Assembly (NCBI GenBank): GCA_016204355.1
Contig: JACQKT010000016.1
Coordinates: 47,269-111,268 of the forward strand
Direction of reading: 5' to 3'
DNA from: Candidatus Liptonbacteria bacterium
Lineage (GTDB): Bacteria > Patescibacteriota > Minisyncoccia > UBA6257 > 2-01-FULL-56-20
Length of the DNA: 64,000 nucleotides
Shown here in pieces: positions 10,142 to 52,647 of this stretch (position 1 is its first letter; the number at the start of each line of letters is the position of its first letter). Position numbers and translations under genes: made by a program. The notes beneath the pieces are model-generated. The model did not search any database. It worked only from the letters and a program-made list of their open reading frames with translations, and was not told the DNA's origin.

Positions 10142-11542
10142 ATGCTTCTAAAATTCTCCAAATTTTTCCTATACGTTTCGCTTTTCAGCGTCTTGATAGT
10201 GATGATATCGACGTTCTTTCCTTTTATCGGAGGGAAGGATTATTTTTTCAGAACGGCGATACAATTGGCGCTGATTTTCTTCATTTTGTGGTGGGGATTT
10301 GAGGCCTCCGACGGAGAAGTTCTGGCGCGGCTGAAAGATATTTTCAGAAAGCCTCTGTTCGCAGCAGTTTCGGCGTTCGCTGCGGCTTTCATGCTGTCCA
10401 CGATTTTCGCATTCGATTCGCACGCCGCTTTCTGGTCCAATTACGAGCGAGGAGAAGGAGGATTCCAAATGCTTCATTACTATGCCTTATTTTTCCTTTT
10501 GGTTTTTCTTTTCAAAGAAAAAAAAGACTGGGAAAGGATTTTCTGGGTTTCCGTGATAGCGGCCGTAGGCATGATACTTTACGGAGTCGGCGCGGCGGTT
10601 TTCGTATCGAATCCCGACGGAAGCCTTTCCAATCCTTTCGGTTTTGTCGGGCCTTATTCCGATTCGGGAAAATTAACGGCGCCAACTTTTATAGGAAGAC
10701 TTTTTTACACGGAGCGATTCCAGGGGTCTCTCGGAAATCCGGCATATGTGGCTCCTTACCTGATGTTCGCGATTTTTTATCTTTTGTGGCTGTGGTTTTC
10801 CGAAAAAAATAAGACTTTGCCGAAAAAATTCGTATATGGAGGACTTGGAGCGCTGTTTTTGGTTTTTTTCCTTCTTTCCAAAACGAGAGGTACTTTTGTC
10901 GGCCTGGCGGGAGCCGTTTTCGTTTTCCTTCTTGTTTTGGCATTCAGTTATCCGAAATTAAGGAAATGGTTCGCGATTTTGATAGCGGCTTTGGCGATAA
11001 TTTTTGGTTCGCTTGTTTACTACAGGAATACGGATTTCGTGAAAAATCTTCCGGCAGGGCGGCTCTTCGATATCGAACTTACCGACAGAACCTTCCAGAC
11101 AAGGCTTTGGACATGGAATTCCGCGTGGCAGGGTTTTTTGGAGAAACCCTTATTGGGATGGGGTCCGGAAAACTTTTCGGGCGTTTTCGACAAATACTTC
11201 GATCCGCGCCATTTCATTCCGGGACAGAACTCGGAAACGTGGTTCGATTACGCGCACAGCATATTTTTCGACTATCTGGTTGAGCTGGGCCTGATAGGAT
11301 TCCTGAGCCACTTCGCGATATTCGCGATATTCTACTGGGAATGGTTTAGAAAATTCCGGCATAAAAACCCCCTTCTTAAGGCGTTGATAGTTTCTCTTCC
11401 CACAAGCTATCTGATACAGGGCTTGGCGCTTTTCAATGTTTTGCCGATATACATAAACCTCTTTTTGTTCCTCGCTTTCGCGTGTTACGAACTTTATTAT
11501 TCCAGGAACGAAACGGTCCATGAAATTTCAAGCGCAACATGA
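10142..11542 (+). CDS. O-antigen ligase/polymerase family membrane protein (Wzy_C-like)
   Basis: ~10-12 TM helices; SKTRGTFVGLAG loop motif; large periplasmic loop; 466 aa. Confidence 0.55.
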   Translation: MLLKFSKFFLYVSLFSVLIVMISTFFPFIGGKDYFFRTAIQLALIFFILWWGFEASDGEVLARLKDIFRKPLFAAVSAFAAAFMLSTIFAFDSHAAFWSNYERGEGGFQMLHYYALFFLLVFLFKEKKDWERIFWVSVIAAVGMILYGVGAAVFVSNPDGSLSNPFGFVGPYSDSGKLTAPTFIGRLFYTERFQGSLGNPAYVAPYLMFAIFYLLWLWFSEKNKTLPKKFVYGGLGALFLVFFLLSKTRGTFVGLAGAVFVFLLVLAFSYPKLRKWFAILIAALAIIFGSLVYYRNTDFVKNLPAGRLFDIELTDRTFQTRLWTWNSAWQGFLEKPLLGWGPENFSGVFDKYFDPRHFIPGQNSETWFDYAHSIFFDYLVELGLIGFLSHFAIFAIFYWEWFRKFRHKNPLLKALIVSLPTSYLIQGLALFNVLPIYINLFLFLAFACYELYYSRNETVHEISSAT

Positions 11543-12168
11543 ATCCCGAAATTAAAAAAATAATAGCCGTTTCGGTAACCATACTGATTGTGATAATCGC
11601 GTATTACGGAACCTATCTTCCGATGAGAAAATCGATGGTTTTTATAGACACAATGCAGCTTTCCGGCAGGGTCAGGACAATAACGGATTTCGAAAACGTT
11701 TTCTCTGTGCCGCTCGACTATCCTTCGCCGGTCGGGCAGGAAGAACTTGTTCGGAGCGTTGCAAACACCGTTGCGAACAACGTCAAAAATATTTCCGATC
11801 CCAGGGGCGTGGAGGAACTCATTGGCTTCATCGAGAAATACTACAACCCGATCATAGAAAGAGGGAGGGGAATGAGTTTCGGCCAGGATGTTTACATAAT
11901 GGGAATGATGAACGAATTCGCCTATTTGCAGACACGCGAACCGAAATATCTCCAAAATGCCGAAAGGTATTTCAAGCAGGAACAGGCTTTGGGACCAAAA
12001 CGCCCGCAATCCCTTTACGGACTTATGGATGTTTACAGGCTTGAGGGAAACGTGGATGAATTCAAAAAAATCGCGGAACAGGTTTTGCGCCAGTGGCCGA
12101 ACGACGCGAGAACAAAGACGTTTATCGAAGAAATGACGGAAAATTCGTCAGGCACGAAAACTCAATAA
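11539..12168 (+). CDS. Hypothetical membrane-anchored protein (N-terminal TM + helical/TPR-like soluble domain)
   Basis: ATGA overlap with the upstream gene; no recognisable catalytic motif. Confidence 0.4.
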
Positions 12169-12172
12169 GAAA

Positions 12173-13201
12173 ATGTCCGAAGATAAAAAAAGAAAGGTTT
12201 CGCTCGTAACCGGAGCCACAGGCCAGGACGGGAGTTATCTGATAGAGCTACTTTTGGACAAAGGATATGAAGTTCACGGAATAATCCGGAGAGCGTCCAC
12301 TTTCAACACCTACAGGATTGACCACATTTTCCAGGACCCGCACGAGAAAAACTTGCGTCTGATATTGCATTACGGAGATCTTGCCGACGCAAACACCGTG
12401 CGTAAGCTTATATACGAAATCGAGCCGGACGAAATTTACAATCTAGGAGCGCAATCACACGTGCGCGTAAGTTTCGATATACCTGAGTATACCGCCAACA
12501 TAACGGGGCTCGGAACACTGCGCCTTCTTGAAGCGATAAAAGACTACGAAGAGCATACGGGGAAGAAAGTTAAATTTTACCAGGCAAGCTCGAGCGAGAT
12601 GTTCGGCGCTGCGAAACCCCCGCAGAACGAATCGACTGCGTTCCAGCCGAGAAGTCCGTATGGCGTTTCAAAGGTTTTTTCTTTTTACATCACCAAAAAT
12701 TACCGCGAAGCCTATGGGATTTTCGCGGTCAACGGAATTCTCTTTAATCACGAAAGCCCGCGCCGCGGAGAAACATTCGTAACGCGCAAAATAACCAGAG
12801 GAATCGCCAAGATAGTCGCCGGTCTGGAAAATAAAATTTATCTCGGCAATCTGGAAGCAAAAAGGGACTGGGGCTACGCCCCGGAGTACGTGGAGGCGAT
12901 GTGGCTCATGATGCAGCAGCCGAAGCCGGACGATTACGTGATAGGCACCGGAGAAAGCCATTCCGTAAAAGAATTTCTTGAAGAAGCTTTCAGGTGCGCA
13001 GGCGTAAAAGACTGGGGAAAATACGTAAGTATCGATCCCCGCTATTACCGCCCAACGGAAGTTGAGAATCTCGTTGCGGATTATGCCAAGGCGAGGGAAA
13101 AACTCGACTGGAAACCGAAAACGGGCTTCAAGGAGCTTGTGAAGATAATGGTTGACCATGACATGAAACAGTACGGTCCCGAAGCAAACGCCAAAAAGTG
13201 A
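12173..13201 (+). CDS. gmd: GDP-mannose 4,6-dehydratase
   Basis: [26 protein letters not shown] (YxxxK), [17 protein letters not shown] signature. Confidence 0.9.
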
Positions 13202-13710
13202 AAAAATTCCGTCCCGTAATAAAACCTATCCCGGAAAAAATTTATCGGATTGTCCATAATTCTTTGCCGATAGTCTGCGCGGACATCGTCGTTTCGGACG
13301 GCAGAGGCCGTTTTTTGATGGTTAAGAGGAAAAATGAACCGGAAAAAGGGAAATGGTGGTTTCCCGGAGGGCGCATCCTGAAAAACGAAACATTGAGAGA
13401 AGGAGCGATAAGAAAGCTCGCGGAGGAGACGGGTCTGAAGCCAAAAAGAGTGAAAGAACTCGGAGTTTACGAATATTTCAATCCCACAGGATATTTCCGC
13501 GGCACAAATACGCACGCGATAGCATTCCCTTTTTACATGGAAATTTCCGCAGCAAAAGTTAAACTCGACGCACAGAGTTCCGATTGGAAGTGGTTTGACA
13601 GGGCAAGCAGCGGCTGGCATCCTTACTTAAAATACTCTCTTAAAAGGGCTGGGTTTCCCTTAAAAGGGAAAAAAAGGAAAAAGGTAAAAATAACTTTTCC
13701 GAAACAATGA
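13198..13710 (+). CDS. gmm: Nudix hydrolase, GDP-mannose mannosyl hydrolase-like
   Basis: Nudix box [24 protein letters not shown]; position directly after gmd as in fucose/colitose clusters. Confidence 0.65.
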
Positions 13711-14891
13711 TACGGCTCATTAAATACACGTTTTATCACGAGAACGAAACAAAGAAAAAACTGGCGGATTTTGTGGTTAAATCGAAACGTCTGAGTTTCG
13801 GTTCGGAATGCGAATCTTTCGAAAGGAATTTCGCCAAGTATCAGGGGAGAAAAGACGCCGTTATGTTCAATAGCGGAAGCTCGGCGAATTTGGCGCTCAT
13901 ACGCGCCTTGCTAAATTTGGGAATTCTCCGCAAAGGAGACGCCGTGGGATTTTCCGCTACAACCTGGTCCACCAATGTCATGCCGCTTATAGAGATGGGC
14001 CTTGAGCCGGTTCCCGTCGACGTGGAAATAGAAACGCTGAACGTATCGTCGGAAACTTTAAAAAAGGCCTTCAAACGCCGGCGGCTGAAAGGATTTTTCC
14101 TGACAAACGCGCTGGGATTTTGCGATGACATCGATAACATAAAAACTTTTTGCAAGCGGAATAAAATTGTTTTCATAGAAGACAATTGCGAAGCGTTAGG
14201 CAGCGTTTTCAAACGGAAAAAGCTCGGCAATTTCGGCCTTGCGGGCACTTTTTCTTTTTACGTCGGGCATCACATGCCGACCATAGAGGGAGGAGCGGTG
14301 GCGACTGACGACAAAGAACTCGCGGCGATGCTCCGCATCGTCCGCGCGCACGGATGGGACAGAAACCTCAAAGAAGCGGAAAGCAAAAAACTGCGCCGGT
14401 GCTTCAAAATAACGTCTCCTTTGTATGCCAAGTACACGTTTTACGATCTCGGATACAATCTTCGCCCTACGGAGATACAGGGGTTTCTCGGAAAAAATCA
14501 GCTCAAATTCCTTCCGGAGATAGTGAAAAAACGTCAGAATAATTTCATCTCGATCGGGCGACAAATATACAGGATGAAGAACAAATATGTTCCTATCGAA
14601 TACGGCCACATGGACGTCGTTTCCAATTTCACTTTTCCGGTGGTATGCCGTTCTGGCAGGATAATGGAAGAATTGGTCAAAAAGTGTGACAAAAAAATAG
14701 AAATAAGGCCTCTGATAGCAGGCGATATAACGCGCCAACCGTTTTTCAAAAAATACGTTAAGCGCTACGCCGATTCCAAAATGACGCCTAATGCGAAAAT
14801 CATCCATGAACGCGGAATTTATTTCGCGAACCATCCCGACCTGTCGGCGGCGGAAAAGAAAACAATAATCGATGTTTTCTCTAAAGGATAA
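13707..14891 (+). CDS. DegT/DnrJ/EryC1-family PLP enzyme with His in place of the Schiff-base Lys: GDP-4-keto-6-deoxy-D-mannose 3-dehydratase (ColD)-like
   Basis: The motif SFYVGHHMPTIEGG has Lys->His, as in ColD/E1 3-dehydratases. 394 aa with no C-terminal Fe-S Cys cluster, which argues against E1/RfbH. It sits between gmd/gmm and an Fcl-like reductase. Confidence 0.55.
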   Translation: MIRLIKYTFYHENETKKKLADFVVKSKRLSFGSECESFERNFAKYQGRKDAVMFNSGSSANLALIRALLNLGILRKGDAVGFSATTWSTNVMPLIEMGLEPVPVDVEIETLNVSSETLKKAFKRRRLKGFFLTNALGFCDDIDNIKTFCKRNKIVFIEDNCEALGSVFKRKKLGNFGLAGTFSFYVGHHMPTIEGGAVATDDKELAAMLRIVRAHGWDRNLKEAESKKLRRCFKITSPLYAKYTFYDLGYNLRPTEIQGFLGKNQLKFLPEIVKKRQNNFISIGRQIYRMKNKYVPIEYGHMDVVSNFTFPVVCRSGRIMEELVKKCDKKIEIRPLIAGDITRQPFFKKYVKRYADSKMTPNAKIIHERGIYFANHPDLSAAEKKTIIDVFSKG

Positions 14892-15807
14892 AAAAATACT
14901 TCTTACCGGCGGCTGGGGATTTTTGGGCAGCGTCGTAAAAGACACGCTTCTGGAGCGTGGCGTGGAAGAAAAAAACATTTATGCGCCGCGGAGCACAGAG
15001 ATGGATCTGAGGAAAGCTGATGATTGCCGCAAGGTTGTTTCCGGATGCGAAGCCGTAATTCACGTAGCCGGCACGGTTGGCGGAGTGGGATTCAACATAG
15101 AGCATCCGGCTATGGCGTTTTACGACAATGCGGCGATGTCGCTCAATCTTCTTGAAGCCTCACGCCTGGAAGGCGTTAAAAAATTCGTCGGCGTCGGTTC
15201 CGTCTGCGAATACCCCAAACTCACACCCGTTCCTTTCAGGGAAGACGACCTTTGGAGCGGGTATCCCGAGGAGACGAACGCCGCCTATGGTTTGGCAAAG
15301 AAAATGATGCTTGTGCAATCGCAGGCATACCGGGCGGAATACGGCTTCAACGCCGTACATTTGCTTTTCACCAATCTGTACGGGCCGGGGGACAATTTCG
15401 ACCTCAAAAATTCGCATGTTCTCGTGGCTCTTGTCAGAAAGGCCGTTGAAGCGGCCGAACGGGGCGACAAATTCATAGACGTTTGGGGGACCGGAAAGGC
15501 GACAAGGGATTTCCTTTATGTGGATGACGCGGCCGAGGCGATAGTTCTTGCGGCGGAAAAATATGACGGAGGAGAGCCGGTGAACGCAGGTAGCGGCCGC
15601 GAAATTTCCATAAAAGAATTGGCGGAGCTTATAATGCGCCTGGTAAAATTCAATGGAGAATTAAAATGGGATACTTCCAAGCCCGATGGACAGCCGCGGC
15701 GCATGCTCGACATTTCCCGCGCGAAAAATGAATTCGGGTTCGAAGCCAAGATGGCGCTTGAGGAAGGACTAAAAAGAACGATTGACTGGTATCTAAAGAC
15801 CCGCTAA
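14872..15807 (+). CDS. GDP-L-fucose synthase family epimerase/reductase (Fcl/ColC-like)
   Basis: ILLTGGWGFLGS, YGLAKK (YxxxK), DVWGTG...RDFLYVDD; typical Fcl architecture. Confidence 0.75.
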   Translation: MFSLKDKKILLTGGWGFLGSVVKDTLLERGVEEKNIYAPRSTEMDLRKADDCRKVVSGCEAVIHVAGTVGGVGFNIEHPAMAFYDNAAMSLNLLEASRLEGVKKFVGVGSVCEYPKLTPVPFREDDLWSGYPEETNAAYGLAKKMMLVQSQAYRAEYGFNAVHLLFTNLYGPGDNFDLKNSHVLVALVRKAVEAAERGDKFIDVWGTGKATRDFLYVDDAAEAIVLAAEKYDGGEPVNAGSGREISIKELAELIMRLVKFNGELKWDTSKPDGQPRRMLDISRAKNEFGFEAKMALEEGLKRTIDWYLKTR

Positions 15808-15821: not shown

Positions 15822-16775
15822 ATGAGCGAATCGAGATTCAAAAAAATATTGGTGACGGGTGGCGCAGGATATGTCGGGACAAGCCTTGTTCCAGAACTTC
15901 TTAAGAACGGATACAAAGTCCGCGTTTTCGACAATCTCCGTTACGGAGGGGACGGATTGCTGCATTATTTCAGCGACAAGAATTTCGAGTTCGTCAAAGG
16001 AGACATCCGCGACAAAAAAGCGGTTGAAAAAGCCGTGGAGGGAACGGATGCGGTCATACATTTAGCCTGCATAGTCGGCTTTCCGGCCTGCAAAAAAGAG
16101 CCGGAACTTTCGCGCGAGATAAACGTCGGCGGAACAAAAAATCTCGTGGAAGCGACCAACGGGAGAGCCCCGATATTTTTCGCGTCAACAGGAAGCACGT
16201 ACGGACAGCTCAAAGAAGACCTTTGCACGGAAAACACACCGGTGAATCCGTTGAGCGATTACGGCAAGCATAAAGTCGAGGCGGAAGAAATAATCAAAAA
16301 CGGAAACAAAGGAGAATACGTGATTTACAGGTATGCCACCGCTTTCGGAGTTTCCGGAAGAATGCGCCTGGATCTTTTACCGAACGATTTTACCTACCGC
16401 GCCGTAAAAGAAAAAAGCCTAATTCTTTACGAAAAAACTTTTCTCCGAACTTTCATACACGTCCGCGATATGGCAAAATCCTTTTTGTTTGCTCTGGAAA
16501 ATTATGACAAAATGAAGGGCGAAATTTACAACGTCGGGGACAACAGCATGAATTGCAGCAAGGAAGATTTGGCGAAAATGATCCGCGAAAAGGTGGATTA
16601 TTATCTTCACTTTGCCGACGTGGGACACGACATCGACCAGCGTGATTATATGGTCTCTTACGAGAAAATAAGTAGTCTCGGTTTCCGCACGACGATTACT
16701 TTGCAGGAAGGAATAGATGAATTGATCAAAGCGGCCGAAGCGCTCGAAGTCAGGAACTCGTATTCCAACGTTTGA
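15822..16775 (+). CDS. NAD-dependent epimerase/dehydratase family protein (SDR)
   Basis: ILVTGGAGYVGT Rossmann motif, YGKHK catalytic YxxxK. Confidence 0.7.
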   Translation: MSESRFKKILVTGGAGYVGTSLVPELLKNGYKVRVFDNLRYGGDGLLHYFSDKNFEFVKGDIRDKKAVEKAVEGTDAVIHLACIVGFPACKKEPELSREINVGGTKNLVEATNGRAPIFFASTGSTYGQLKEDLCTENTPVNPLSDYGKHKVEAEEIIKNGNKGEYVIYRYATAFGVSGRMRLDLLPNDFTYRAVKEKSLILYEKTFLRTFIHVRDMAKSFLFALENYDKMKGEIYNVGDNSMNCSKEDLAKMIREKVDYYLHFADVGHDIDQRDYMVSYEKISSLGFRTTITLQEGIDELIKAAEALEVRNSYSNV

Positions 16776-16842: not shown

Positions 16843-17958
16843 TTACGCCTTTTGATAAAACTCCTTTATTTTTCCAACGACTTCATCTTTTTGTTCGCTG
16901 GTCAGCTGCGATGACGACGGAAGATAAAGTCCGTTGTCGCCGTAGTGATCCGCCCACGGGAATCTTTCGTCTTTCTGAAGATGCTGATAGACGGGCTGGC
17001 GGTGCATCGGGATGAAGAAAGTCCTTGTTTCTATTCCGTTTTCCGCGAGGAAATCCATAAGCTCGTCGCGTTTCGGCGCCAATAGGCCGAACATCCAGAA
17101 AACCGAAAAAGTGTCCGGTTTTTCGGGGAACAAAGTCAGTCCGGGAACATCTTTTAGTCCGTTTATATAATATTGGGCATTTGTTCTCCTTTTCCCTACC
17201 AGTTCATCAAACCGCTTTAGCTGCGCGGAGCCGAGCGCCGCGTTCAGCGCGGGATAACGGAGATTGAAAGCGACGGTCTTGTGCCAGAAATGCATGTCGT
17301 CGTTGAAATCATAGCTCTTCATGTGGTTAAGGGCGTTCGCTAGAGAATCGTCATTTGTAAGAATTACTCCTCCTTCGCCGGAACTGATTATCTTGTTTGC
17401 GAAAAGCGAGAAGCAGCCGGCAATGCCGAAAGTTCCCGCCATTTTGCCCTTGTATTTCGCGCCGTGAATTTCGGCGGCGTCTTCGACTACGTGAAGATTG
17501 TGCTTTTTCGCGATTTCCATTATTGGGTCCATGTCGCACGGTTCGCCGTAAATATGCACCGGCATTATCGCTTTGGTTCTCGGAGTTATTTTTTCCTCGA
17601 TTTTTTTCGGGTCCATATTGAAACTCTGCTCGGAAGAATCCACAAAAACAGGAATCGCGCCGCAGTGGCTTGCCGCCGCCGGACTCGCGACCATCGTGAA
17701 CGAAGGCATAATGACTTCATCTCCTTCTTTTACGCCGAGAGCTTTCAATACGATAAAAAGCGCGGAACCGCCGGAATTAACGGCGATTGCGTGTTTCATT
17801 CCAAATTTTTCAGCGAATTCTTTCTCGAAACGTTTGACCGGCGGCGCGAAGCCTGAAACGTAATTGTTTTTAATGGCCTCGGTTACGTATTCTATTTCAA
17901 GATTGCTCAAGTCCGGCTCGCATACTCTTATTTTTATCGGCGGATATTCTTTTTTCAT
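16843..17958 (-). CDS. DegT/DnrJ/EryC1/StrS aminotransferase (NDP-4-keto-6-deoxyhexose 4-aminotransferase; GDP-perosamine synthase-like by context)
   Basis: SLFANKIISSGEGG retains the catalytic Lys; co-oriented immediately downstream of the second gmd. Confidence 0.7.
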   Translation of the reverse strand: MKKEYPPIKIRVCEPDLSNLEIEYVTEAIKNNYVSGFAPPVKRFEKEFAEKFGMKHAIAVNSGGSALFIVLKALGVKEGDEVIMPSFTMVASPAAASHCGAIPVFVDSSEQSFNMDPKKIEEKITPRTKAIMPVHIYGEPCDMDPIMEIAKKHNLHVVEDAAEIHGAKYKGKMAGTFGIAGCFSLFANKIISSGEGGVILTNDDSLANALNHMKSYDFNDDMHFWHKTVAFNLRYPALNAALGSAQLKRFDELVGKRRTNAQYYINGLKDVPGLTLFPEKPDTFSVFWMFGLLAPKRDELMDFLAENGIETRTFFIPMHRQPVYQHLQKDERFPWADHYGDNGLYLPSSSQLTSEQKDEVVGKIKEFYQKA

Positions 17959-18020: not shown

Positions 18021-18998
18021 TTATTTTTTGTCGACCATCTCGCGCTTCGCTTCTTTCAAATCGTGCTCGAGCATTATCTTTATAAGTTCTTTGAATTTTA
18101 CTTTGGGGTCGAACCCGAAGGCATTTTTTGCCTTGGAAATATCACCGAAAAGTATCGTATTCGTAGCCGGCCGCAAAAATTTAGGATTTACCTTGACGTA
18201 TTTCGACGGGTCTAAATTCACCTGTCTGAAAGTTTCATCGACGAACTCCTGGACCGAGTGCGTTTCGCCCGTTGAAATTATGTAATCGTCGGCCTTCGGC
18301 TGCTGCAAAATGCTCCAGGCGGCTTCCATGTATTCTTTCGAATAACCCCAGTCGATTTTGGCGGAAAGGTCGCCGAGCTCGAGAGCATTCTGGAGACCGA
18401 GCGATATTCTGGCGGCGGCTTTGGTAACTTTTCTCGAAAGGTATTCATCCGGCCGGCGGGGAGATTCATGATTGTAAAAAATCGCCGTGCCCACGAACAT
18501 GTCGTAGGTTTCGCGGTAAAACCTGCTGATTACCGCCGCCAGAACTTTGGCGCAGGCGTACGGGCTTTGCGGCTGGAAGTCCGTATTTTCCGTCTGCGGG
18601 ATATCTGTCGTTTTTCCGAACATGTGAGAAGACAGCGGCTGGAACACTTTTATTTTCGGATTGAGCTGGCGGATTATCTCAAGAAGGCGTCCCACAGCCG
18701 CTCCCGTCACGTTGTACTGAAAATCAACGGCCTCGAAACTCCAGCCGACGTGGTCCTGGTCGGCTTCGTTATAAATTTCGTCCGGCTGAACAGTCGTTAT
18801 TATTCTGTAAAGAGAAGTCGAATCCAAAATATCGCCGCGGTGAAGCGTAATCTTATCCGTAAAATGTTCGATGTTCCGCGTATTGCCGGTCGCGGTTTTC
18901 CGGTACATGCCGTGGACTTCGTATCCTTTCTCCAAGAGCACTTCCGCGAGATAAGAACCATCCTGTCCTGTAACGCCGAGAATCAGAGCTTTTTTCAT
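18021..18998 (-). CDS. GDP-mannose 4,6-dehydratase paralog (divergent; His replaces the catalytic Glu)
   Basis: [35 protein letters not shown]. The active-site stretch reads LSSHMFG instead of SSEMFG. Confidence 0.7.
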   Translation of the reverse strand: MKKALILGVTGQDGSYLAEVLLEKGYEVHGMYRKTATGNTRNIEHFTDKITLHRGDILDSTSLYRIITTVQPDEIYNEADQDHVGWSFEAVDFQYNVTGAAVGRLLEIIRQLNPKIKVFQPLSSHMFGKTTDIPQTENTDFQPQSPYACAKVLAAVISRFYRETYDMFVGTAIFYNHESPRRPDEYLSRKVTKAAARISLGLQNALELGDLSAKIDWGYSKEYMEAAWSILQQPKADDYIISTGETHSVQEFVDETFRQVNLDPSKYVKVNPKFLRPATNTILFGDISKAKNAFGFDPKVKFKELIKIMLEHDLKEAKREMVDKK

Positions 18999-21831: not shown

Positions 21832-21877
21832 GAGGTATATGTTAAAGGAAATGTTATTAAGGGGCAATATCCGGGGG

Positions 21878-21905
21878 TTGACAGCTGCCGTCCATAGGCT
21901 ATAAT
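21878..21905 (+). promoter_or_regulatory. Near-consensus sigma70 promoter (TTGACA-16 nt-TATAAT), 11 nt before the ATG (near-leaderless)
   Basis: Read directly; drives the RHH-cysD-cysN operon. Confidence 0.6.
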
Positions 21906-21916
21906 TACCTGTAATT

Positions 21917-22939: not shown

Positions 22940-22965
22940 TTTTGGGTTTAGGTGTAAGCGCCAGT
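22940..22965. repeat. Intercistronic hairpin repeat, partial copy in inverted orientation (left end of insertion)
   Basis: TTTTGGGTTTAGGTGTAAGCGCC is ~identical to the 17969-17987 arm. Confidence 0.55.
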
Positions 22966-24584: not shown

Positions 24585-24586
24585 TC

Positions 24587-29097: not shown

Positions 29098-29122
29098 TGC
29101 GTTGTGTACCGGCGACAAAGAC

Positions 29123-46203: not shown

Positions 46204-47148
46204 TTACAGCGTTTCAAGAGTTCTTCCTATTCCTTCTTCGAATTTTATTTTCGGCTTCCAGCCGAGAATTTTTGTCGCGCGGCCGCTGTCGAGAGCAATT
46301 TGATAAATTTCCCCTTTGCGGTAAGACGCATAACGAGGCGTGTCAACGGGTCCTTTCTCTTTTATTTTTTCGACAAACGAAATTTCTTTTTTAATAGTAT
46401 CGAATACTTTCTTGTCCGTTATTTTTTTACCCCATCCGAGATTCAATATTTCGTTTACGCCTTTTTTCAGTCCAAGAATGTTTGCTTGGGCTATGTCTTC
46501 AATATAGGTATAATCGCGCGCCTTGCTACCGTCGCCGAAGATTGTCGGTTTAATGCCTTTTTTCATCAATCTTGCGAAAATCGGGATAACGTGGCTGATA
46601 TCCCTTGGGCCATACACGTTTGGATAGCGGAAAATTAAGTACTCAAATCCAAAAGATTTGCCGTAAAATTTCACTGTTTCCTCTCCGAGAAATTTGGAAA
46701 GCCCGTATGGAGATATAGGCGCAAGTGCGATACTTTCGTGGACTGGAATTTTTTTCGGCTGGCCATAAATTGTTCCGCCGCTTGAAGCGAATATGAACTT
46801 TTTCCTGTAGCCCGCCGATCCACTGCCATATTCCCCGAACGTAAGAAGAAGATTGACGGTGCCGATAAGGTTGGTTTCGTACGTCAGAATTTGATTGTCG
46901 ATGGACGACATGACCAAGGAAACAGCCGCATGATGATTTACCATCGTTGGTTTCTCGTGTTTGAAAATTTTTTCCATCTCCGGAAAGTTTCTGATATCAG
47001 ATTTGTAAAATTTCGCTTTCGGATTTAGATTTTTTCTGAAGCCGGTCGAGAGATTGTCCACAACGATCACTTTGTGCCCCGCTTTAACGTAGTCGTCGAC
47101 AATGTGAGAAGCTATAAATCCCGCTCCGCCAGTAACAAGTATTTTCAT
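46204..47148 (-). CDS. NAD-dependent epimerase/dehydratase (GalE/UDP-sugar epimerase-like)
   Basis: ILVTGGAGFIASH, YGLSK. Confidence 0.7.
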   Translation of the reverse strand: MKILVTGGAGFIASHIVDDYVKAGHKVIVVDNLSTGFRKNLNPKAKFYKSDIRNFPEMEKIFKHEKPTMVNHHAAVSLVMSSIDNQILTYETNLIGTVNLLLTFGEYGSGSAGYRKKFIFASSGGTIYGQPKKIPVHESIALAPISPYGLSKFLGEETVKFYGKSFGFEYLIFRYPNVYGPRDISHVIPIFARLMKKGIKPTIFGDGSKARDYTYIEDIAQANILGLKKGVNEILNLGWGKKITDKKVFDTIKKEISFVEKIKEKGPVDTPRYASYRKGEIYQIALDSGRATKILGWKPKIKFEEGIGRTLETL

Positions 47149-47202: not shown

Positions 47203-47748
47203 TTATTCAACCATAGGCGGAAAATCAAAACATTCATAGTTCTTTTTTGAGCTACCATCTATGGTAACGATTTCGAATTCTGATTGTAGCTTCTTAAGTC
47301 TTTCTATTTGATCTTGGGCATGCTTTTTAACAATTGCCAAAGTCCGTTCGCTGTTCCACCAGCGCTTTTTCTGTTGCCGCTCATAAGTTTCTCTGGAGGC
47401 CGTGTTTATGAAAATAGTTCTATGTTTGCAACGGGGCAGGGCCGTTTTTACCGCCCTTAGTCTGTCTTCATCCAAATCGATGTTTTGCCCTTTTATTAAA
47501 ATGACCGAGTTCGGTTTATCCGCCAGTTTTACAATAACCGCAGGCAAATCCCCCCGCCTCTCTTCATTTCCATCGCCCTCTGCCTGAACGACCCAATTGA
47601 TGCTCTCCATGCAGGGAATTATTTCTTTTCCGGTCCATCCGAGTCCACGCAAAACATCGGCCGGTTTTTTCTCGGAGATAGTTTTTATAAAAGTTTCTTT
47701 TCCTGCACTGCTGTTGCCGTATACCCAAACAATTTCAGTTCCATCCAT
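47203..47748 (-). CDS. P-loop NTPase/small kinase-like protein of unknown specificity
   Basis: Walker A VYGNSSAGKET; GDGNEERRGD and LDEDRL acidic stretches; 181 aa. Confidence 0.4.
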   Translation of the reverse strand: MDGTEIVWVYGNSSAGKETFIKTISEKKPADVLRGLGWTGKEIIPCMESINWVVQAEGDGNEERRGDLPAVIVKLADKPNSVILIKGQNIDLDEDRLRAVKTALPRCKHRTIFINTASRETYERQQKKRWWNSERTLAIVKKHAQDQIERLKKLQSEFEIVTIDGSSKKNYECFDFPPMVE

Positions 47749-47757: not shown

Positions 47758-48741
47758 TTATTTCTGTGGGTCTTTTCTGGAGAGCAGGGCGTCTGCCGGA
47801 GAGAAACGGTAATCAAAACCAGTTGATTTTATTTTTGAACCGTCCACGTTTATCGGATAGACAAGCCCGGCCGAGGAATCCGGATGAGTCGGTATCCTTC
47901 CTAAGGTCAGATTCCACGCGAGCCAAAAAAGCGGGCGCACGAACGATTTAGGAATTTTTATAACGATTTTTCCGAGAAGTTCCGCCATTTCGCGGGCTGT
48001 AAGAAAAGAAGGCGGAGCGAAGTTATATATTTCTTCCGATCCTTTTTTGCCGGGGGAGTTGATTAATTTGATTATTGCTCCGGCAACATCTTCTTCATGA
48101 ACGAATTGCCTCGCCCACGCGGGGTCGGTTTCTATCACGAACGGAAGAATTTTTCTGACGAAAGATATCAAGCTTATCGATTTGCTTTTGAGACTTTGTC
48201 CGATTGGACCGGTAACGCTGCCCAGCCGCAGAATCACCGTTTCTGTTTCGGGATTCTTTTCGGAAGTAATCTTTAAAAGCATTTCTTCAACTTCTTTTTT
48301 CTGAAGCCCGTAGGGTGATTTGTTTTCTCTAAGCGGAAAATTTTCTTTCAGCAAGACCCCGACATTTTCTTCCAATGCGCCGTAAGCGGCGACGCTGCTC
48401 GAATATATCAGCCTTGGGATTTTGTTTTCAAACGCGAAATCGAATAGATTCCGGCAGTTTGCGAAATTTTCTTCGGCGGTTTCCCGGACTTTCCCGTAAG
48501 GGCTTCTTATCTTGAAAGCGAGATGGATAATGACGTCGAACGGGCCGTGCTCTAGGGCTTCTTCTTCCCATCCTGGTTCCGCAAGGTTATGTTTTATCCA
48601 GAAAAGCTTTCTGTTTTCCATACCTTGCGGTTGAGACAGAAGGTCTATTCCGACTATTTTTTCTACGTTTTCTTCCTCAAAAAGTTTTCCAAGAAGGACG
48701 CGCGCTATATACCCCGCGCTTCCCGTCAATAGTATTTTCAT
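47758..48741 (-). CDS. NAD-dependent epimerase/dehydratase family protein
   Basis: Start at MKILLTGSAGYIA; SPYGLQK YxxxK. Confidence 0.65.
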   Translation of the reverse strand: MKILLTGSAGYIARVLLGKLFEEENVEKIVGIDLLSQPQGMENRKLFWIKHNLAEPGWEEEALEHGPFDVIIHLAFKIRSPYGKVRETAEENFANCRNLFDFAFENKIPRLIYSSSVAAYGALEENVGVLLKENFPLRENKSPYGLQKKEVEEMLLKITSEKNPETETVILRLGSVTGPIGQSLKSKSISLISFVRKILPFVIETDPAWARQFVHEEDVAGAIIKLINSPGKKGSEEIYNFAPPSFLTAREMAELLGKIVIKIPKSFVRPLFWLAWNLTLGRIPTHPDSSAGLVYPINVDGSKIKSTGFDYRFSPADALLSRKDPQK

Positions 48742-48748
48742 TTTTGTT

Positions 48749-50083
48749 TCAGCGGCCCTGTGCCGTAAAAAGCACTTTAACCGTTTTGGCGATGATTGCA
48801 ATGTCCAGTGCTATAGACCTGTTTTTTATGTAATAGAGATCATAGGCAAGGCGTTCTTTCGTTTGCTCAAGAGACGCGGTAATAGGATATTTCGTTTGCG
48901 CCCAACCCGTAACCCCGGGACGCACGAGCGTTCTTACGGAGTAATAAGGAATAGTTTTTTCGAGTCCATGGTAGAAATCCAAGAAATCAGGCCTGGGGCC
49001 AACAAAGGAAATGTCTCCTTTGATTATATTTATAAGCTGGGGAAGCTCGTCCAAGTGTGTTTTTCTAAGCAATTTCCCGATGACGGTTATTCTTTTGTCA
49101 TTTTCTTCGGGCCAGGCGTGCGCTTCGCTTACTTTCATTGTTCTGAATTTGTATATTATGAATTCTTTTTTGTTTCTTCCAACCCGCGCCTGTTTGTATA
49201 TAGCGGGCCCAGGCGAAGAAATTTTTACAAGAAGCGCTATGAGTATTTCAAGCGGAAGAAGAATTACGCCTAAAGCCGCCGCCAAAATAAACTCAATTGC
49301 CCTTTTCAGGTTGTCGTAGAATTTGTCCTTTTCCACAATCTCGTCCAGAAACCATTCTTCGCTTACTTCGTCCAGCGGAACTTTTTGGAAAATTATTTCA
49401 TAAAAAGCGGGCAAATCTATGACATCAATGCCCAGCGTAAGAAGACTGTAAAATACTTTTGCCGCCCCTGGTTCGCTTTTGAAATATCTCGGGATTACGA
49501 TCAGGTTTATTTTGTTATTGTGGACAAGCCTTTTCCAATCGTCGATTTCTTTTAGGGAAGAGTTCTCCTTGCCATCAAGCCAGATCGTAAGTTCATAGCC
49601 GAGCTGGGAATTTTCTCTTATAAGTTCGGAAATTTCCCGCGCCGCCCGGCTTGAGCCGACTACGGCAATTTTCGTTTTGGCCTGGAATTCAGCCGTGAAC
49701 TTGTTGAAAGAGCGGCGCCAAACGGTTTCAAGCGCCGTAAAAATAATTATGAATATCAATAAATTCGTTTTCGGAGTAATTCCGAAATAGGGGATCAAAT
49801 AGAAGAAGGTCATTGATAGAAAAGCATTTACCGCTATGGCAAGCCAAAGCGTTTTCAAAAAATCGATATTGTTGCGCAATCGTTTTGGGTCATAAAGTCC
49901 GGAAACGTAAAAAACGATCAGCCAAAGCACAAAAACTGCGCTGAACGGCATCAGGTGACTGTCTATAAATCTGTCGAAATCCGAGCCATACCGAAAAATA
50001 AGAGTCAAAAACAAACTCAAGTAGAGCGCCAGAACATCCCCGATCAAGATAAAAAAAATTTTTACTTTATTGTCTGTTTTCAT
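48749..50083 (-). CDS. wbaP: Undecaprenyl-phosphate hexose-1-phosphate transferase (WbaP/CpsE-type initiating sugar transferase)
   Basis: N-terminal TM block; C-terminal PGPAIYKQARVGRN...FIIYKFRTM...DELPQL...ISFVGPRP motifs. Confidence 0.85.
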   Translation of the reverse strand: MKTDNKVKIFFILIGDVLALYLSLFLTLIFRYGSDFDRFIDSHLMPFSAVFVLWLIVFYVSGLYDPKRLRNNIDFLKTLWLAIAVNAFLSMTFFYLIPYFGITPKTNLLIFIIIFTALETVWRRSFNKFTAEFQAKTKIAVVGSSRAAREISELIRENSQLGYELTIWLDGKENSSLKEIDDWKRLVHNNKINLIVIPRYFKSEPGAAKVFYSLLTLGIDVIDLPAFYEIIFQKVPLDEVSEEWFLDEIVEKDKFYDNLKRAIEFILAAALGVILLPLEILIALLVKISSPGPAIYKQARVGRNKKEFIIYKFRTMKVSEAHAWPEENDKRITVIGKLLRKTHLDELPQLINIIKGDISFVGPRPDFLDFYHGLEKTIPYYSVRTLVRPGVTGWAQTKYPITASLEQTKERLAYDLYYIKNRSIALDIAIIAKTVKVLFTAQGR

Positions 50084-50663
50084 GTGGTTTGATTTTACTC
50101 ACAATAAAATGGTGTTCCAGCCGGTAATGCGGTTTCCACCAAAGAACGTAAAAATTGGCCAGCACGAAAGCAACAGCCCATATCACCGATGTCCAATAAT
50201 CGTATCCCCACAGAACTCCTATAACAGCCGCAAAGCAGAACAATGTGCCGAGTCCGTCAATCCGTATTTTCATGTAAAGAAGTTTCGAGTATCCCGCCAG
50301 CCGCGTCAAGAACACGTATTTAAGCGTAGCTATAATAAAAAGCAAAGTCGAAATAATCGTAAAATTGAGAACAGAGTTCAAATTGAACGTTAAAAGAAGC
50401 ATGCACGCTCCGAGCGCAGCGTCGACCAACTGCTGGCCGGGATGTTCTTTCGGAGTTATGCTCGCGAACGAACGCACGGAAAAGTAGGTATTTGTAAGCA
50501 GGGTTGCATAAAAAATAACCAGCGGCCACGATTTTTCCCAGTCTGCGACGTAATTCAGCGACACGAGAAAAATTATCGCGAATGCAGCCGTAACTGCGGC
50601 TGCGCGGCGGCGCGCATAAGGAGTGAATCCCGCGCCGATATTAGATAAAGGATTTATTTCCAT
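50067..50663 (-). CDS. Hypothetical polytopic membrane protein
   Basis: 5-6 predicted TM helices; 17-nt overlap with wbaP. Confidence 0.4.
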   Translation of the reverse strand: MEINPLSNIGAGFTPYARRRAAAVTAAFAIIFLVSLNYVADWEKSWPLVIFYATLLTNTYFSVRSFASITPKEHPGQQLVDAALGACMLLLTFNLNSVLNFTIISTLLFIIATLKYVFLTRLAGYSKLLYMKIRIDGLGTLFCFAAVIGVLWGYDYWTSVIWAVAFVLANFYVLWWKPHYRLEHHFIVSKIKPHENRQ

Positions 50664-50737
50664 AAAAACATCCTCGAAATACTTTTCGTACTATAAGTAC
50701 ATATGTAAATTCAATATTACGTCGGCGCAGGACAAGT

Positions 50738-51451
50738 TTACCTGACATCTTGATAATGCTCGGTGAACGGCTTTTTAAAAATAACCCCCCAAACAAAGTT
50801 GATTGCGTACACCAAATATGTTTTTAAAACACCTTCTTTCATTAGGCGTCGGCCGGAGCCATAGACGAAAAAATTCATCCGGAAAACAACCTTGCCCACC
50901 CTATGCAGTCTTCTGGCGATATCGGTGTCTTCCCCATAAAATTTTATGTTTGTGTTAAAACCTCCTATTTTTTCGATGGCGTCCCGACGGGCCACAAAAT
51001 TGCCTCCGAGTATCATATAGCCCACCAGCCGGTAAGTAATAGGCGCGAACCACCAGCCGCCATCAGCCAGAAATTTTTTGAATCTTGGTATGCCGTAGTA
51101 ATACCGGGGGCCGCTGAGGGCGACAACAGACGGATTTTCAAATTCGGAAAGAGCTATTTTTAGCCAGCCATCTTTCAGGACACAATCGGCATCGATATAC
51201 GCCAGTAAATCGCCCGCCGCTTCTTTAAGTCCTCTTTGCCTGGCGTATGTCAGGCCTTTGTTAGGCTCATTGACGACGTGGATACCCTTGTACTTTCGAG
51301 CGATTTCGTCAGTACGGTCTGTGGAAGCGTTGTTGACAACGATTATCTCCGCTTCACGGGGATTTTCCCCCAGTTCTTTCTGGATGGAAGCGATGCAATT
51401 GCCGACGTAGTTTTCTTCGTTATAAGCAGGGATTACGAAGCTGATGCGCAT
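50738..51451 (-). CDS. Glycosyltransferase family 2
   Basis: ISFVIPAYNEE...VVNNASTDRT...YIDADC. Confidence 0.8.
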   Translation of the reverse strand: MRISFVIPAYNEENYVGNCIASIQKELGENPREAEIIVVNNASTDRTDEIARKYKGIHVVNEPNKGLTYARQRGLKEAAGDLLAYIDADCVLKDGWLKIALSEFENPSVVALSGPRYYYGIPRFKKFLADGGWWFAPITYRLVGYMILGGNFVARRDAIEKIGGFNTNIKFYGEDTDIARRLHRVGKVVFRMNFFVYGSGRRLMKEGVLKTYLVYAINFVWGVIFKKPFTEHYQDVR

Positions 51452-52647
51452 TATTTTCTACGGTGATTATTATACTCCCTTATCGCTTTTTCGTAAATTT
51501 TTTCCCACTCTTTCGCGATGCTTTCAGAACCGAAATTCAACGCGAATTTTCTTGCGCCTGCGCCGAGTTTTTTTCTCGCTTCGGGATTTTTGAAAAGGAA
51601 AATTATTTTTTGAGCAAGGGCTTCGGGATTATCCGATTCTACCAATATTCCATTGTTCTTTCTTATGTATTCAGGCAGCGCCCTGGCCTTTACTCCTATC
51701 ACCGGCAAACCGGATGCCATTGCCTGCATCATAACCATGCTTTGCGTATCGGAAGTGCTTGTTATCGCAAAAATTTCCGACGCGTTATAGACTTCCGCAA
51801 GAACCGGTTTCCCCAAAAACCCCATGAATTTGACGGAAGCGCTGATTCCAAGTTTGGCGGCAAGCGATTTCAGATCGTTTTCCGCGCTGCCGTGGCCGGC
51901 AACGGCCAGTTCCGCTTTGGAAAATTCTTTTTTTACGAGGGGCATGGCTTTTATTATCACCTCGATTTTTCTTTCCGGTGAAAAGCGGCCCGCATGCACA
52001 ACAGTGCAGCCGGAGAAGCCGAATTTTTTTCTGAGCCAGTTTTTATTCGGAAGCGGAGAAAATGTTTGTATATCAAGCGGATTGGAAATAACGTGTGATT
52101 CTTTTTCCAATCCGTAAAATTTCATTTCGTCTATGACTGAACGGGAAGGTGCAGTTATCAAGTCGCATTTGCCGTAATACCAATTGACGTAGCGGAGTAT
52201 TTTGTTTTCCGCCCATTCGCCCTTGAGCGGGCTGTACTTCATAAATTCTTTTATTGCTGTGTGATTTGTTCCTATAAGCGGTTTTTTCAGGACTCTCGCG
52301 CACCATAGAGCTTCAAGTCCGGCCCCAAAAAAAAGCTGCGTATGAATGATGTCCGGATTGAATTTTTTGGCGTTGGAATATACGAAGGGGTGGGGAATTA
52401 TCGCGCGTCCCTGCCCGGTGCCGGTTGGATAAGGAACGGAGAATAATCTGACAATGCTTATGTCTCTGCCTAGGTCGATCTCCTGCGGCGGCAGACCTGT
52501 CTTGGCATAGTTTTTCCGAACGTAGCGCGGAACGTAAAAACGTATTTGATGCCCGCGGCCCGCCAGCTCCTTTGCGAGCGATATTATCGAGTCGGATATA
52601 CCCGATATTTCGGGGTAAAAATTGTCCGAAAAAATGGCGATTTTCAT
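51451..52647 (-). CDS. Glycosyltransferase family 4 (GT-B)
   Basis: Start at MKIAIFSDNFYPEISGIS; EAxxxG-type C-terminal motif QAMASGLPVIG. The upstream 64 codons of the ORF are intergenic. Confidence 0.8.
   Translation of the reverse strand: MKIAIFSDNFYPEISGISDSIISLAKELAGRGHQIRFYVPRYVRKNYAKTGLPPQEIDLGRDISIVRLFSVPYPTGTGQGRAIIPHPFVYSNAKKFNPDIIHTQLFFGAGLEALWCARVLKKPLIGTNHTAIKEFMKYSPLKGEWAENKILRYVNWYYGKCDLITAPSRSVIDEMKFYGLEKESHVISNPLDIQTFSPLPNKNWLRKKFGFSGCTVVHAGRFSPERKIEVIIKAMPLVKKEFSKAELAVAGHGSAENDLKSLAAKLGISASVKFMGFLGKPVLAEVYNASEIFAITSTSDTQSMVMMQAMASGLPVIGVKARALPEYIRKNNGILVESDNPEALAQKIIFLFKNPEARKKLGAGARKFALNFGSESIAKEWEKIYEKAIREYNNHRRK

Follow-up and report, generated by a model that had tools for sequence, protein, structure and literature searches.

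The 64-kb window analyzed here, the whole stretch of DNA taken from a contig of a Candidatus Liptonbacteria genome, is dominated by one long block of genes at positions 10142 to 52647. We interpret this block, with a probability of about 70%, as a native cell-surface glycan island that encodes a Wzx-dependent, polyprenyl-phosphate-linked assembly line and occupies a slot between rny (the RNase Y gene) and PAP2/dsbA. The host is an uncultivated groundwater bacterium whose genome is known as a metagenome-assembled genome (MAG). In bacteria of the Candidate Phyla Radiation (CPR)/Patescibacteria, the cell surface is where ultra-small cells meet hosts and phages, and their envelope is essentially uncharacterized. 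Papers on CPR genomes have already noted many glycosyltransferases and polysaccharide clusters, and our literature search found no prior description of the rny-dsbA island in Liptonbacteria.

Open reading frames (ORFs) were listed for the window, all 59 were searched against Pfam and NCBIfam, and best Protein Data Bank (PDB) matches were collected for selected proteins. Contigs or loci of relatives are labeled L002 to L091 (L018 is CAZADL010000010.1 and L087 is CAYHXB010000001.1). The block spans about 42 to 43 kb and consists of 41 consecutive ORFs, almost every one of which has a predicted role in glycan synthesis. Both ends are exact gene boundaries: position 10142 is the start of the gene for a Wzy_C membrane protein (Wzy_C1), and position 52647 is the annotated start of a glycosyltransferase gene (GT4c, with a 398-aa call in L081). 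The sugar-nucleotide enzymes include seven short-chain dehydrogenases/reductases (SDRs), two DegT proteins, and a four-gene heptose cassette. Nine glycosyltransferases are encoded (three GT4, three GT2, one GT10, one Glyco_trans_1_2, and one borderline PMT_2/GT-C), with the initiating phosphoglycosyltransferase (PGT) counted separately. Four methyltransferases complete the set (one C-methyltransferase with Methyltransf_13/14 domains, two of the FkbM type, and one Methyltransf_23). These scans bear out the gene inventory of the original prediction, which described a composite glycan locus of about 42 kb with glycosyltransferases including GT10 and GT-C members and four methyltransferases. An Rfam scan of the window returned tRNA only.

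Comparative genomics, which the original prediction had proposed, reveals a lineage-wide island with a fixed position, conserved ends, and a mosaic center. In about 30 relatives, the gene for RNase Y is followed by a conserved head consisting of Wzy_C1, a small membrane protein (g10), a GDP-mannose 4,6-dehydratase (GMD), sometimes a NUDIX gene, and at least one Fcl-like gene, beyond which the content differs. This head arrangement is lacking in more distant Paceibacteria. Likewise, a conserved tail composed of GT2b, Wzx, a nucleotidyltransferase, a GalE-like SDR, the PGT, g47, GT2c, GT4c, a DedA/VTT protein, and PAP2 is present in L083, L085, L086, and L091. Beyond PAP2, the genes for DsbA, glutaredoxin, thioredoxin reductase (TrxR), GroES/EL, ThyA, DHFR, and LemA are syntenic across the clade. 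Between the two ends, neighboring genes share from 49% to 92% identity with the closest full relative, and the three sugar cassettes of the window (colitose-like, perosamine-like, and heptose) occur singly in different relatives (L002, L046, and L024). The suggestion that the locus is composite is thus upheld.

The size of the island is another matter, since the original prediction called the locus exceptionally large for a small genome. On contigs that contain both anchors, the rny-dsbA interval measures 34.3 kb in CAYIAX010000002.1, about 45.4 kb in QZIV01000007.1, and at least 36.6 kb in CAYHXB010000001.1. At the other extreme, the interval in L018 is 3.8 kb and holds only Wzy_C1, g10, and a PyrD-like gene between rny and PAP2-dsbA. 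Judged from relatives with an 805-kb chromosome and an 841-kb contig, the genome would be about 0.8 Mb, and therefore the island would amount to about 5% of it. Because relatives carry islands of 34 to 45 kb at the same spot, we consider the window island large relative to the genome but ordinary within the clade, a familiar sort of trait that runs through the whole lineage. The word “exceptional” was therefore an overstatement, and a small-genome precedent also exists. Streamlined SAR11 genomes carry hypervariable region 2 (HVR2), a positionally conserved, genome-specific surface-polysaccharide island of 48 to 59 kb (bioRxiv 10.64898/2026.04.03.716430, and Wilhelm 2007 as cited therein). Like the window island, HVR2 carries glycosyltransferases, epimerases, DegT, and GMD; it also carries sulfotransferases, and its variability has been attributed to phage pressure (bioRxiv 10.64898/2026.04.03.716430). 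SAR11 is a diderm whose hypervariable regions are anchored by tRNA genes and depressed in G+C (GC) content, whereas the window island is anchored by rny and dsbA and resembles its flanks in GC content.

Diversifying selection acting on a surface antigen or receptor would be expected to leave such a pattern, in which the head and tail are conserved and the middle is reshuffled. The islands of 34 to 45 kb, whose ligase-type head and whose tail for initiation and flipping stay constant, point to strong diversifying selection on the surface glycan, as is seen for O-antigens and SAR11 HVR2, and they supply concrete candidate genes. The known logic of glycan assembly is left unchanged by these findings.

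Because the source is a MAG, we considered whether the block is an assembly chimera or a recent foreign import, in which case the genetic investment would not be this small genome's own. Certain features could be read this way, including 14 strand switches within the locus, a GC-richer patch (0.52) at 41 to 43 kb that covers g38 and g39, and small mobile-type remnants (a pseudogene of the 23S_rRNA_IVP family in the window, and GIY-YIG, PDDEXK, and Fic genes in the loci of relatives). Against these stand the flanks and both locus ends, which are syntenic across many relatives, and the overall GC content, which is 0.460 for the locus versus 0.465 for its flanks. The window lacks long repeats that would suggest a mis-join or insertion sequence (IS) elements. 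Furthermore, Logan contigs assembled independently from SRR12113383/4 match three window junctions at 100% identity (GT4c-hydrolase-DedA-PAP2-DsbA-TrxR; GHMP-SIS-NTP-HAD-g38-g39; PGT-g45-g44-g43), and collinear blocks of L002, L087, L088, L083, and L091 together tile almost the whole locus. Given the independent contigs, the collinear relatives, the GC match, and the absence of long repeats, a mis-join, which the original prediction had named as a possible refutation, or a recent foreign island is very unlikely, and this alternative is already largely refuted. Small insertions private to this genome are suggested only by the 41- to 43-kb patch (g38 and g39) and by the g44-g45 pair.

The guess about the taxon, a bacterium with a small genome, proved correct. 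The RNase Y encoded to the left of the locus is 89% to 78% identical to proteins of MAGs assigned to Patescibacteria, Paceibacterota, or Candidatus Liptonbacteria, and the DsbA, g22, and g44 proteins of the window are deposited as Candidatus Liptonbacteria. This placement makes a lipopolysaccharide (LPS) product unlikely, as had been proposed. Gene content does not distinguish the locus from a common LPS O-antigen cluster of a diderm bacterium, in which Wzy_C1 would play the part of WaaL. Nevertheless, we regard this explanation as highly improbable, because the close relatives are all Patescibacteria/Paceibacteria MAGs, the 64 kb contain no lpx, kds, lpt, lipid A, or core genes, and a Parcubacterium genome has been reported to lack lpxC and kdsA (PMC5220378).

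The proteins predicted to initiate, flip, polymerize, and transfer the glycan, together with those at the right boundary, are as follows.

10142..11542, + strand: Wzy_C1, ligase-type Wzy_C membrane protein of the conserved head; Pfam Wzy_C E=1.4e-20; 11 transmembrane (TM) segments
11539..12168, + strand: g10, single-TM protein with a tetratricopeptide repeat (TPR)-like outer domain; weak TPR_19/TPR_14 matches; always after Wzy_C1 in relatives
36819..38057, - strand: Wzy_C2, variable-region Wzy_C protein and probable polymerase; Wzy_C E=1.7e-13; 64% identity in L087
43905..45401, - strand: Wzx flippase of the MOP family; Polysacc_synt E=2.9e-35; 14 TM segments; weak matches to NCBIfam Wzx models
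48749..50083, - strand: initiating polyprenyl-phosphate PGT of the WbaP/WcaJ type; TIGR03025 347.8 bits versus a cut-off of 295.6; Bac_transf E=4.9e-60
53615..55079: DedA/VTT membrane protein and PAP2 phosphatase at the right boundary; weak Pfam matches; recur between the locus and dsbA in L018, L085, L086, and L091

The WbaP/Wzx machinery named in the original prediction is well matched by the PGT and Wzx proteins. In contrast, the description of the two Wzy_C proteins as ligase paralogs is not supported, since they are barely related to each other (BLASTP E=0.075). Neither has sequence relatives in the PDB. Wzy_C1 lies directly 3' of the RNase Y gene in about 30 relatives, and L018, with its minimal locus, is one of them. 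Across 23 orthologs, in loci with different sugar genes, it retains about 50% identity and 75 invariant columns. This retention, even where sugar genes are missing, fits a glycan-tolerant ligase or oligosaccharyltransferase. Wzy_C2 resides in the variable center, as polymerases do, and so it is read as a polymerase. It is more likely, judging from these distributions, that Wzy_C1 is the conserved ligase-type enzyme and Wzy_C2 the variable polymerase.

Two alternatives concern the fate of the glycan. The first is general protein O-glycosylation, toward which the original prediction leaned, in which Wzy_C1 would be a PglL/WsaB-type oligosaccharyltransferase acting on an S-layer protein or type IV pilins and the GT-C enzyme would glycosylate proteins directly. 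It departs from our favored reading in the acceptor alone, and we view it as possible, although it is the less probable of the two. The conservation of Wzy_C1 irrespective of the glycan genes is what a promiscuous transferase would exhibit, and LPS is unlikely in this taxon. S-layer clusters of Gram-positive bacteria and the cluster of Tannerella use Wzy_C-type transferases, GDP-heptose, and deoxy sugars. Likewise, glycosylated S-layers have been suggested for CPR bacteria (PMC5220378). On the other hand, Wzy_C1 matches only the generic Wzy_C domain and no O-oligosaccharyltransferase-specific model (PglL_A etc.), there is no pilin or S-layer gene in or adjoining the locus, and PMT_2, to which the GT-C protein is a borderline match, includes ArnT-like transferases acting on lipids or glycans.

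The second alternative is that the product is a capsule or exopolysaccharide, either free or loosely attached. Both Wzy_C proteins would then be polymerases serving two different repeat units, with no covalent acceptor. A classic Wzx/Wzy capsule gene set is present, and L087 has a third Wzy_C gene midway through its locus, which would suit several polymerases for several polymers. We nevertheless judge this arrangement unlikely. A polymerase normally changes along with its repeat unit, whereas Wzy_C1 is conserved and is found in L018 even though that locus has no sugar genes. In addition, functions of the polysaccharide copolymerase (PCP)/tyrosine kinase or Wza type are absent, with no family match to a Wzz/PCP chain-length regulator among the 59 ORFs scanned.

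Our favored reading, an envelope-attached and probably heavily decorated glycan built by a Wzx-dependent pathway, draws on a large set of predicted nucleotide-sugar enzymes.

12173..13201, + strand: GMD1, GDP-mannose 4,6-dehydratase; TIGR01472 (gmd equivalog) 526.6 bits versus a cut-off of 415; 70% to 79% identity in relatives
13198..13710, + strand: NUDIX protein resembling GDP-mannose mannosyl hydrolase; Pfam NUDIX E=1e-20; NF011963 64.9 bits, below cut-off
13707..14891, + strand: ColD-like pyridoxal/pyridoxamine phosphate (PLP/PMP) 3-dehydratase (DegT); best PDB match ColD 2GMS, E=8e-60, full length
14872..15807, + strand: Fcl/ColC-like epimerase-reductase (or heptose C4-reductase); NF047922 GDP-L-fucose synthase 275 bits versus a cut-off of 500
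15822..16775, + strand: SDR g15; PDB 6VO6/6VO8 E=7e-86, with 6VO6 the best match
16843..17958, - strand: 4-aminotransferase resembling perosamine synthase (DegT); best PDB match perosamine synthetase 3BN1/3DR4, E=2e-87
18021..18998, - strand: GMD2, GDP-hexose/heptose 4,6-dehydratase; TIGR01472 344 bits versus a cut-off of 415
20635..22083, - strand: nucleoside diphosphate (NDP)-sugar C-methyltransferase; Methyltransf_14 E=2.9e-34 plus a Methyltransf_13 Zn domain; 83% identity in L087
32303..33475, + strand: SDR g29, GalE-like; accompanies the heptose cassette and adjoins GHMP/SIS/NTP genes in L024, L083, and L088
38080..40993, + strand: GDP-heptose cassette (HddA-like kinase, GmhA, HddC-like guanylyltransferase, GmhB); NCBIfam HddA 149, GmhA 82, HddC 95.5, and GmhB 150.8 bits
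45489..46190, + strand: sugar-1-phosphate nucleotidyltransferase; NTP_transferase E=3e-42
46204..47148, - strand: GalE/RmlB-like SDR, a conserved tail gene; Pfam/NCBIfam matches and presence in the tails of relatives
47758..48801, - strand: divergent SDR g45; Epimerase E=2.9e-26

The original prediction proposed three nucleotide-sugar pathways yielding GDP-colitose-like, GDP-4-amino-4,6-dideoxyhexose-like, and GDP-heptose products. The three enzyme sets are indeed present (GMD with the ColD-like and Fcl-like enzymes, GMD2 with the perosamine synthase-like aminotransferase, and the heptose cassette), but the sugars cannot be assigned uniquely. The ColD-like enzyme retains the two histidines (“HH”) of ColD at the site where aminotransferases carry a catalytic lysine. 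GMD2 and the perosamine synthase-like aminotransferase are also paired in L046 (74% and 71% identity). The NCBIfam models that match the heptose cassette are the best or near-best for each protein, and all scores fall below cut-offs; the cassette is kept in L024, L083, and L088. The best PDB match for g15, 6VO6, is presumably Cj1427 of Campylobacter jejuni, a GDP-heptose C4-dehydrogenase. In the capsule toolbox of C. jejuni, GMD-like 4,6-dehydratases, ColD-like PLP 3-dehydratases, and Fcl-like C4-reductases act on GDP-heptose (PMC10680097). By this precedent, the “colitose” and “perosamine” cassettes could make 6-deoxy, 3,6-dideoxy, or 4-amino heptoses, and modified heptoses could be produced instead of, or besides, hexose derivatives. 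The Fcl-like gene belongs to the conserved head and is often duplicated in relatives. The recurrence of GMD, the Fcl-like gene, and GT10 among relatives makes it probable that the glycan always contains a 6-deoxy sugar of the fucose type.

The remaining transferases and tailoring methyltransferases are listed below.

19069..20355, + strand: GT4a; Pfam Glycos_transf_1/Glyco_transf_4
25945..27021, + strand: GT10 (fucosyltransferase family); Glyco_transf_10 E=3.2e-17; homologs in the loci of six relatives
28180..29097, + strand: FkbM-type methyltransferase 1; Methyltransf_21 E=7.5e-20
29039..30349, + strand: GT4b; Glycos_transf_1 E=2.9e-20
30359..31414, + strand: Glyco_trans_1_2 family transferase; E=8.8e-31
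31464..32426, + strand: GT2a (g28), possible polyprenyl-phosphate sugar synthase; Glycos_transf_2 E=1e-37; C-terminal TM segment at residues 283 to 301
33488..34114, + strand: FkbM-type methyltransferase 2; Methyltransf_21 E=7e-9
34154..35761, + strand: GT-C-like polytopic protein g31 (PMT_2/ArnT-like); PMT_2 26.6 bits versus a cut-off of 26.1; nine TM segments; 82% identity in L087
35950..36822, + strand: S-adenosylmethionine (SAM)-dependent methyltransferase (Methyltransf_23); E=3.5e-26
43024..43845, + strand: GT2b, first gene of the conserved tail; 62% to 64% identity in L083 and L085
50738..51451, - strand: GT2c (g48), the size of DPM1; Glycos_transf_2 E=2.3e-32; weak matches to dolichyl-phosphate hexose transferases
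51451..52647, - strand: GT4c; Glycos_transf_1 E=6.8e-34

The GT-C protein g31 has no sequence relatives in the PDB. It lies near the TM-bearing GT2 protein g28 and the SDR g29 in a block that is kept in L087, an arrangement that recalls the three-component GT-C systems Gtr and Arn (PMC11127046). These systems differ in that the window contains no recognized GtrA-type flippase, its GT2 matches are generic, and its GT-C match is borderline. The resemblance of g31-g28-g29 to Arn/Gtr decoration is therefore weak. Judged from its family, a GT-C enzyme of the PMT_2 type would fit Arn/Gtr-style glycan decoration and protein O-glycosylation equally well. Assignment of g28 or g48 as a proven GtrB/DPM1-type enzyme is unsupported, as the NCBIfam matches are generic or weak.

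Three adjacent genes suggest that the glycan might also be sulfated.

22154..22939, + strand: CysD, small subunit of ATP sulfurylase; NF003587 294.6 bits versus a cut-off of 195; 92% identity in L087
23367..24584, + strand: CysN-like GTPase subunit; GTP_EFTU E=3e-36; CysN models 205 to 213 bits, below cut-offs; EF-1alpha model 244 bits
24587..25948, + strand: g22, soluble sulfatase-fold enzyme and candidate glycan sulfotransferase; Pfam Sulfatase E=1.4e-42

Sulfate activation had been predicted, and this part of the prediction stands insofar as CysD scores above its cut-off and is accompanied by a CysN-like protein. The full pathway does not, since neither an APS (adenosine 5'-phosphosulfate) kinase nor a classical sulfotransferase is encoded in the window, where no Pfam match of the Sulfotransfer_1/2/3 type was obtained and CysQ was not found either. 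The gene for g22 starts 3 nt past CysN and is translationally coupled to CysD/CysN, and the order CysD-CysN-g22-GT10 recurs in L087 (92%, 74%, 65%, and 60% identity, respectively). In the large family to which g22 belongs, the C/S-x-P-x-R formylglycine motif is replaced by [T/S]-P-x-S-F, which places a threonine or serine at the nucleophile site and eliminates the arginine. Without the formylglycine motif and without a signal peptide, g22 was rejected as a true sulfatase.

Agl30 and Agl31, sulfatase-fold proteins of the Halobacterium N-glycosylation cluster, were identified in 2025 as glycan sulfotransferases by deletion and heterologous expression (PMC11980604). Like g22, these Halobacterium salinarum proteins have an alkaline phosphatase/sulfatase fold and are encoded inside a glycan cluster, and Agl31 is also soluble (PMC11980604). 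Their nearest solved structures, 6HHM and 5G2U, are matched by g22 as well, and the putative role of g22 is likewise to act on a lipid-linked glycan. They differ in that Agl30/Agl31 modify an archaeal N-glycan, whereas g22 is encoded in a bacterial locus and coupled to CysD/CysN. On this precedent, it is reasonable to propose that g22 carries out the same chemistry in a bacterium, and the locus thus offers a candidate for the newly recognized sulfatase-fold sulfotransferases that is genetically tied to ATP sulfurylase. The absence of cysC from the locus raises the possibility that APS is the sulfate donor. By analogy, CysD-CysN-g22 might form a sulfation route without APS kinase or a classical sulfotransferase, in which g22, with its Ser/Thr nucleophile and as the bacterial counterpart of Agl30/Agl31, would move the sulfuryl group from APS to the lipid-linked glycan, with Wzy_C1 and its TPR partner serving as the glycan-tolerant ligase of the clade to envelope proteins. 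We offer this full scheme as a speculative proposal that is more probably wrong than right.

Taken together, the gene products suggest the following pathway. In the cytoplasm, GDP-6-deoxy, 3,6-dideoxy, and 4-amino sugars and heptoses would be made by GMD1 and GMD2, the ColD-like and perosamine synthase-like DegT enzymes, Fcl-like reductases, GmhA/HddA/GmhB/HddC, the C-methyltransferase, and a GalT-fold nucleotidyltransferase (g38). The WbaP/WcaJ-type PGT would prime the chain on the polyprenyl-phosphate carrier, eight Leloir glycosyltransferases would lengthen it, O-methyltransferases would decorate it, and the CysDN-coupled enzyme g22 would probably do so as a sulfotransferase. Wzx would then move the unit to the outer face, where Wzy_C2 would polymerize it and the GT-C enzyme would add a branch derived from a lipid-phosphate sugar. 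Wzy_C1 and its TPR partner g10 would attach the product to a protein or lipid of the envelope, and DedA and PAP2 could recycle the lipid carrier.

Gene content, taxon, chromosomal slot, synteny, and mosaicism are established by the data, whereas we infer all of the enzymatic steps, the division of labor between Wzy_C1 and Wzy_C2, and sulfation. Several points weigh against this reading. Only GMD1, CysD, and the PGT score above curated cut-offs among the specific enzyme assignments, and the PMT_2 call for g31 is borderline. Sequence cannot separate a Wzy_C polymerase from a Wzy_C ligase. Genes for a chain-length regulator, an LCP ligase, an acceptor protein, and export machinery are all missing from the window. 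For the sulfation step, homologs of g22 occur in L088 and L060 without CysDN nearby, and the window scans returned no APS_kinase match for CysC, a copy of which could lie elsewhere in the genome.

The systems to which this island is most readily compared differ by criterion: mechanistically the closest are O-antigen and capsule clusters, in sugar chemistry the capsule loci of C. jejuni, and in genome ecology SAR11 HVR2. Among O-antigen clusters, colitose is specified by those of Escherichia coli O55/O111 and perosamine by those of E. coli O157 and Vibrio cholerae O1. Proteobacterial O-antigen and capsule loci share with the island a PGT, Wzx, Wzy_C, GDP-sugar cassettes (GMD, ColD, ColC/Fcl, and Per), many glycosyltransferases, and variable content in a fixed slot. 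In contrast, the island belongs to a Patescibacterium, in which LPS is unlikely, lacks Wzz in the window, is two to three times the size of a typical O-antigen cluster, and is headed by a ligase-type Wzy_C gene and its TPR partner. S-layer glycan (slg) clusters of Bacillales and the O-glycosylation cluster of Tannerella build O-antigen-like lipid-linked glycans that are moved by Wzy_C-type oligosaccharyltransferases. They serve monoderm or non-LPS envelopes and employ GDP-heptose, deoxy sugars, and methylation, and the Bacillales slg clusters mostly rely on ABC-transporter export. The target glycoprotein is known for these systems, whereas the window contains no acceptor gene. The C. jejuni capsule loci share GDP-heptose synthesis of the GmhA/HddA/GmhB/HddC type, a C4-dehydrogenase-like enzyme (g15 in the window), GMD-, ColD-, and Fcl-like enzymes, methyltransferases, and conserved ends around a variable middle (PMC10680097). 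They differ from the Wzx/Wzy_C arrangement of the window in using ABC-transporter (Kps) export and a lipid-Kdo anchor, and no cupin C3/C5 epimerase like those of the C. jejuni toolbox was seen in the window.

The island also carries several unfamiliar ORFs.

27030..27872, - strand: g24, signal-anchored secreted protein of 280 aa with a Ser/Thr-rich linker and tail; one N-terminal TM segment
41059..41856, - strand: g38, GalT-fold HIT nucleotidyltransferase/NDP-sugar phosphorylase; AlphaFold2 (AF2) model with a pLDDT of 96.2, searched with Foldseek
42056..42907, - strand: g39, inositol monophosphatase family protein; Inositol_P E=4e-27
47203..47748, - strand: g44, orphan P-loop kinase
50067..50663, - strand: g47, membrane protein with five TM segments beside the PGT; no family match; 73% identity in L086 and 49% in L091

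The g38 protein has no Pfam assignment, and its true start is M34. The top Foldseek matches to its model are ADP-glucose phosphorylase structures 1ZWJ/2H39 (TMq of 0.74, E=2e-12), and GalT structures yield TMq values of 0.65 to 0.72. The family comprises about 170 cluster representatives of 265 to 290 aa. In 48 members, C42 and the histidines of an HxHxH motif are invariant, with a consensus of CPFC at the cysteine site; GalT carries HxHxQ instead. The two-lobed fold, the His-x-His motif, and the Zn-site cysteine pair that mark the GalT branch are all found in g38. On the basis of its modeled structure, we consider g38 a candidate nucleotide-sugar enzyme beside the heptose cassette, and the locus thereby contributes a small, unannotated family of GalT-fold enzymes. 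Its neighbor g39 was rejected as CysQ, since it scores 101 bits with the HisN model and 59 bits with that of CysQ.

Only six homologs of g44 were found in 5.8 billion proteins. One of these, in L089 (9619-10522, on another Patescibacteria contig), directly follows the gene for a small HIT protein and is not part of a glycan locus, which hints at a kinase/HIT pair for handling nucleotides. The g44 protein was rejected as the missing APS kinase, because its generic P-loop kinase fold is nearest to adenylate and polynucleotide kinases and APS kinase ranks 47th or lower. The g24 protein has no family match and no homolog in the relatives that were retrieved; it may process glycans or may itself be a glycosylated protein of the cell surface.

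Between CysD and CysN lies a frameshifted pseudogene of the 23S_rRNA_IVP family (PF05635 E=1.4e-12), whose product would be a four-helix bundle.

22974..23364, + strand: 23S_rRNA_IVP pseudogene, comprising ORFs 22974-23225 and 23152-23364

The pseudogene is bracketed by 24-nt imperfect inverted repeats (22943-22966 and 23392-23415), and the entire element (22943-23415) has the appearance of a small insertion cassette that has decayed. An 18-nt intergenic motif, GCGSCYAAAACTAAACCC, occurs in four copies at up to three mismatches, versus 0.25 expected by chance (17965-17991, 22944-22961, 23397-23414, and 31440-31457). Two of these copies are the inverted repeats around the pseudogene, and the copies could be insertion scars or regulatory sites. 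In L087 (7587-8660 of CAYHXB010000001.1), the CysD ortholog (92%) bears an in-frame GIY-YIG insertion of about 95 aa, which falls about where the window CysD ends and the pseudogene begins. The loci of other relatives contain further small mobile-type genes, specifically PDDEXK_3 in L083, Fic and a 94-aa GIY-YIG gene in L086, and a bAvd-like gene for a four-helix bundle in L088.

To the right of the island, positions 55113 to 57638 hold a redox and chaperone block that includes a membrane-anchored DsbA-like protein, small SPW and glutaredoxin ORFs, TrxR, GroES/GroEL, ThyA, DHFR, and LemA. The presence of DsbA beside an envelope-glycan locus implies that disulfide-bonded proteins are exported. 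To its left, a short UvrC-like protein of 411 aa with GIY-YIG and UvrC RNase H domains is encoded at 5374 to 6609 on the minus strand, and only some relatives have it.

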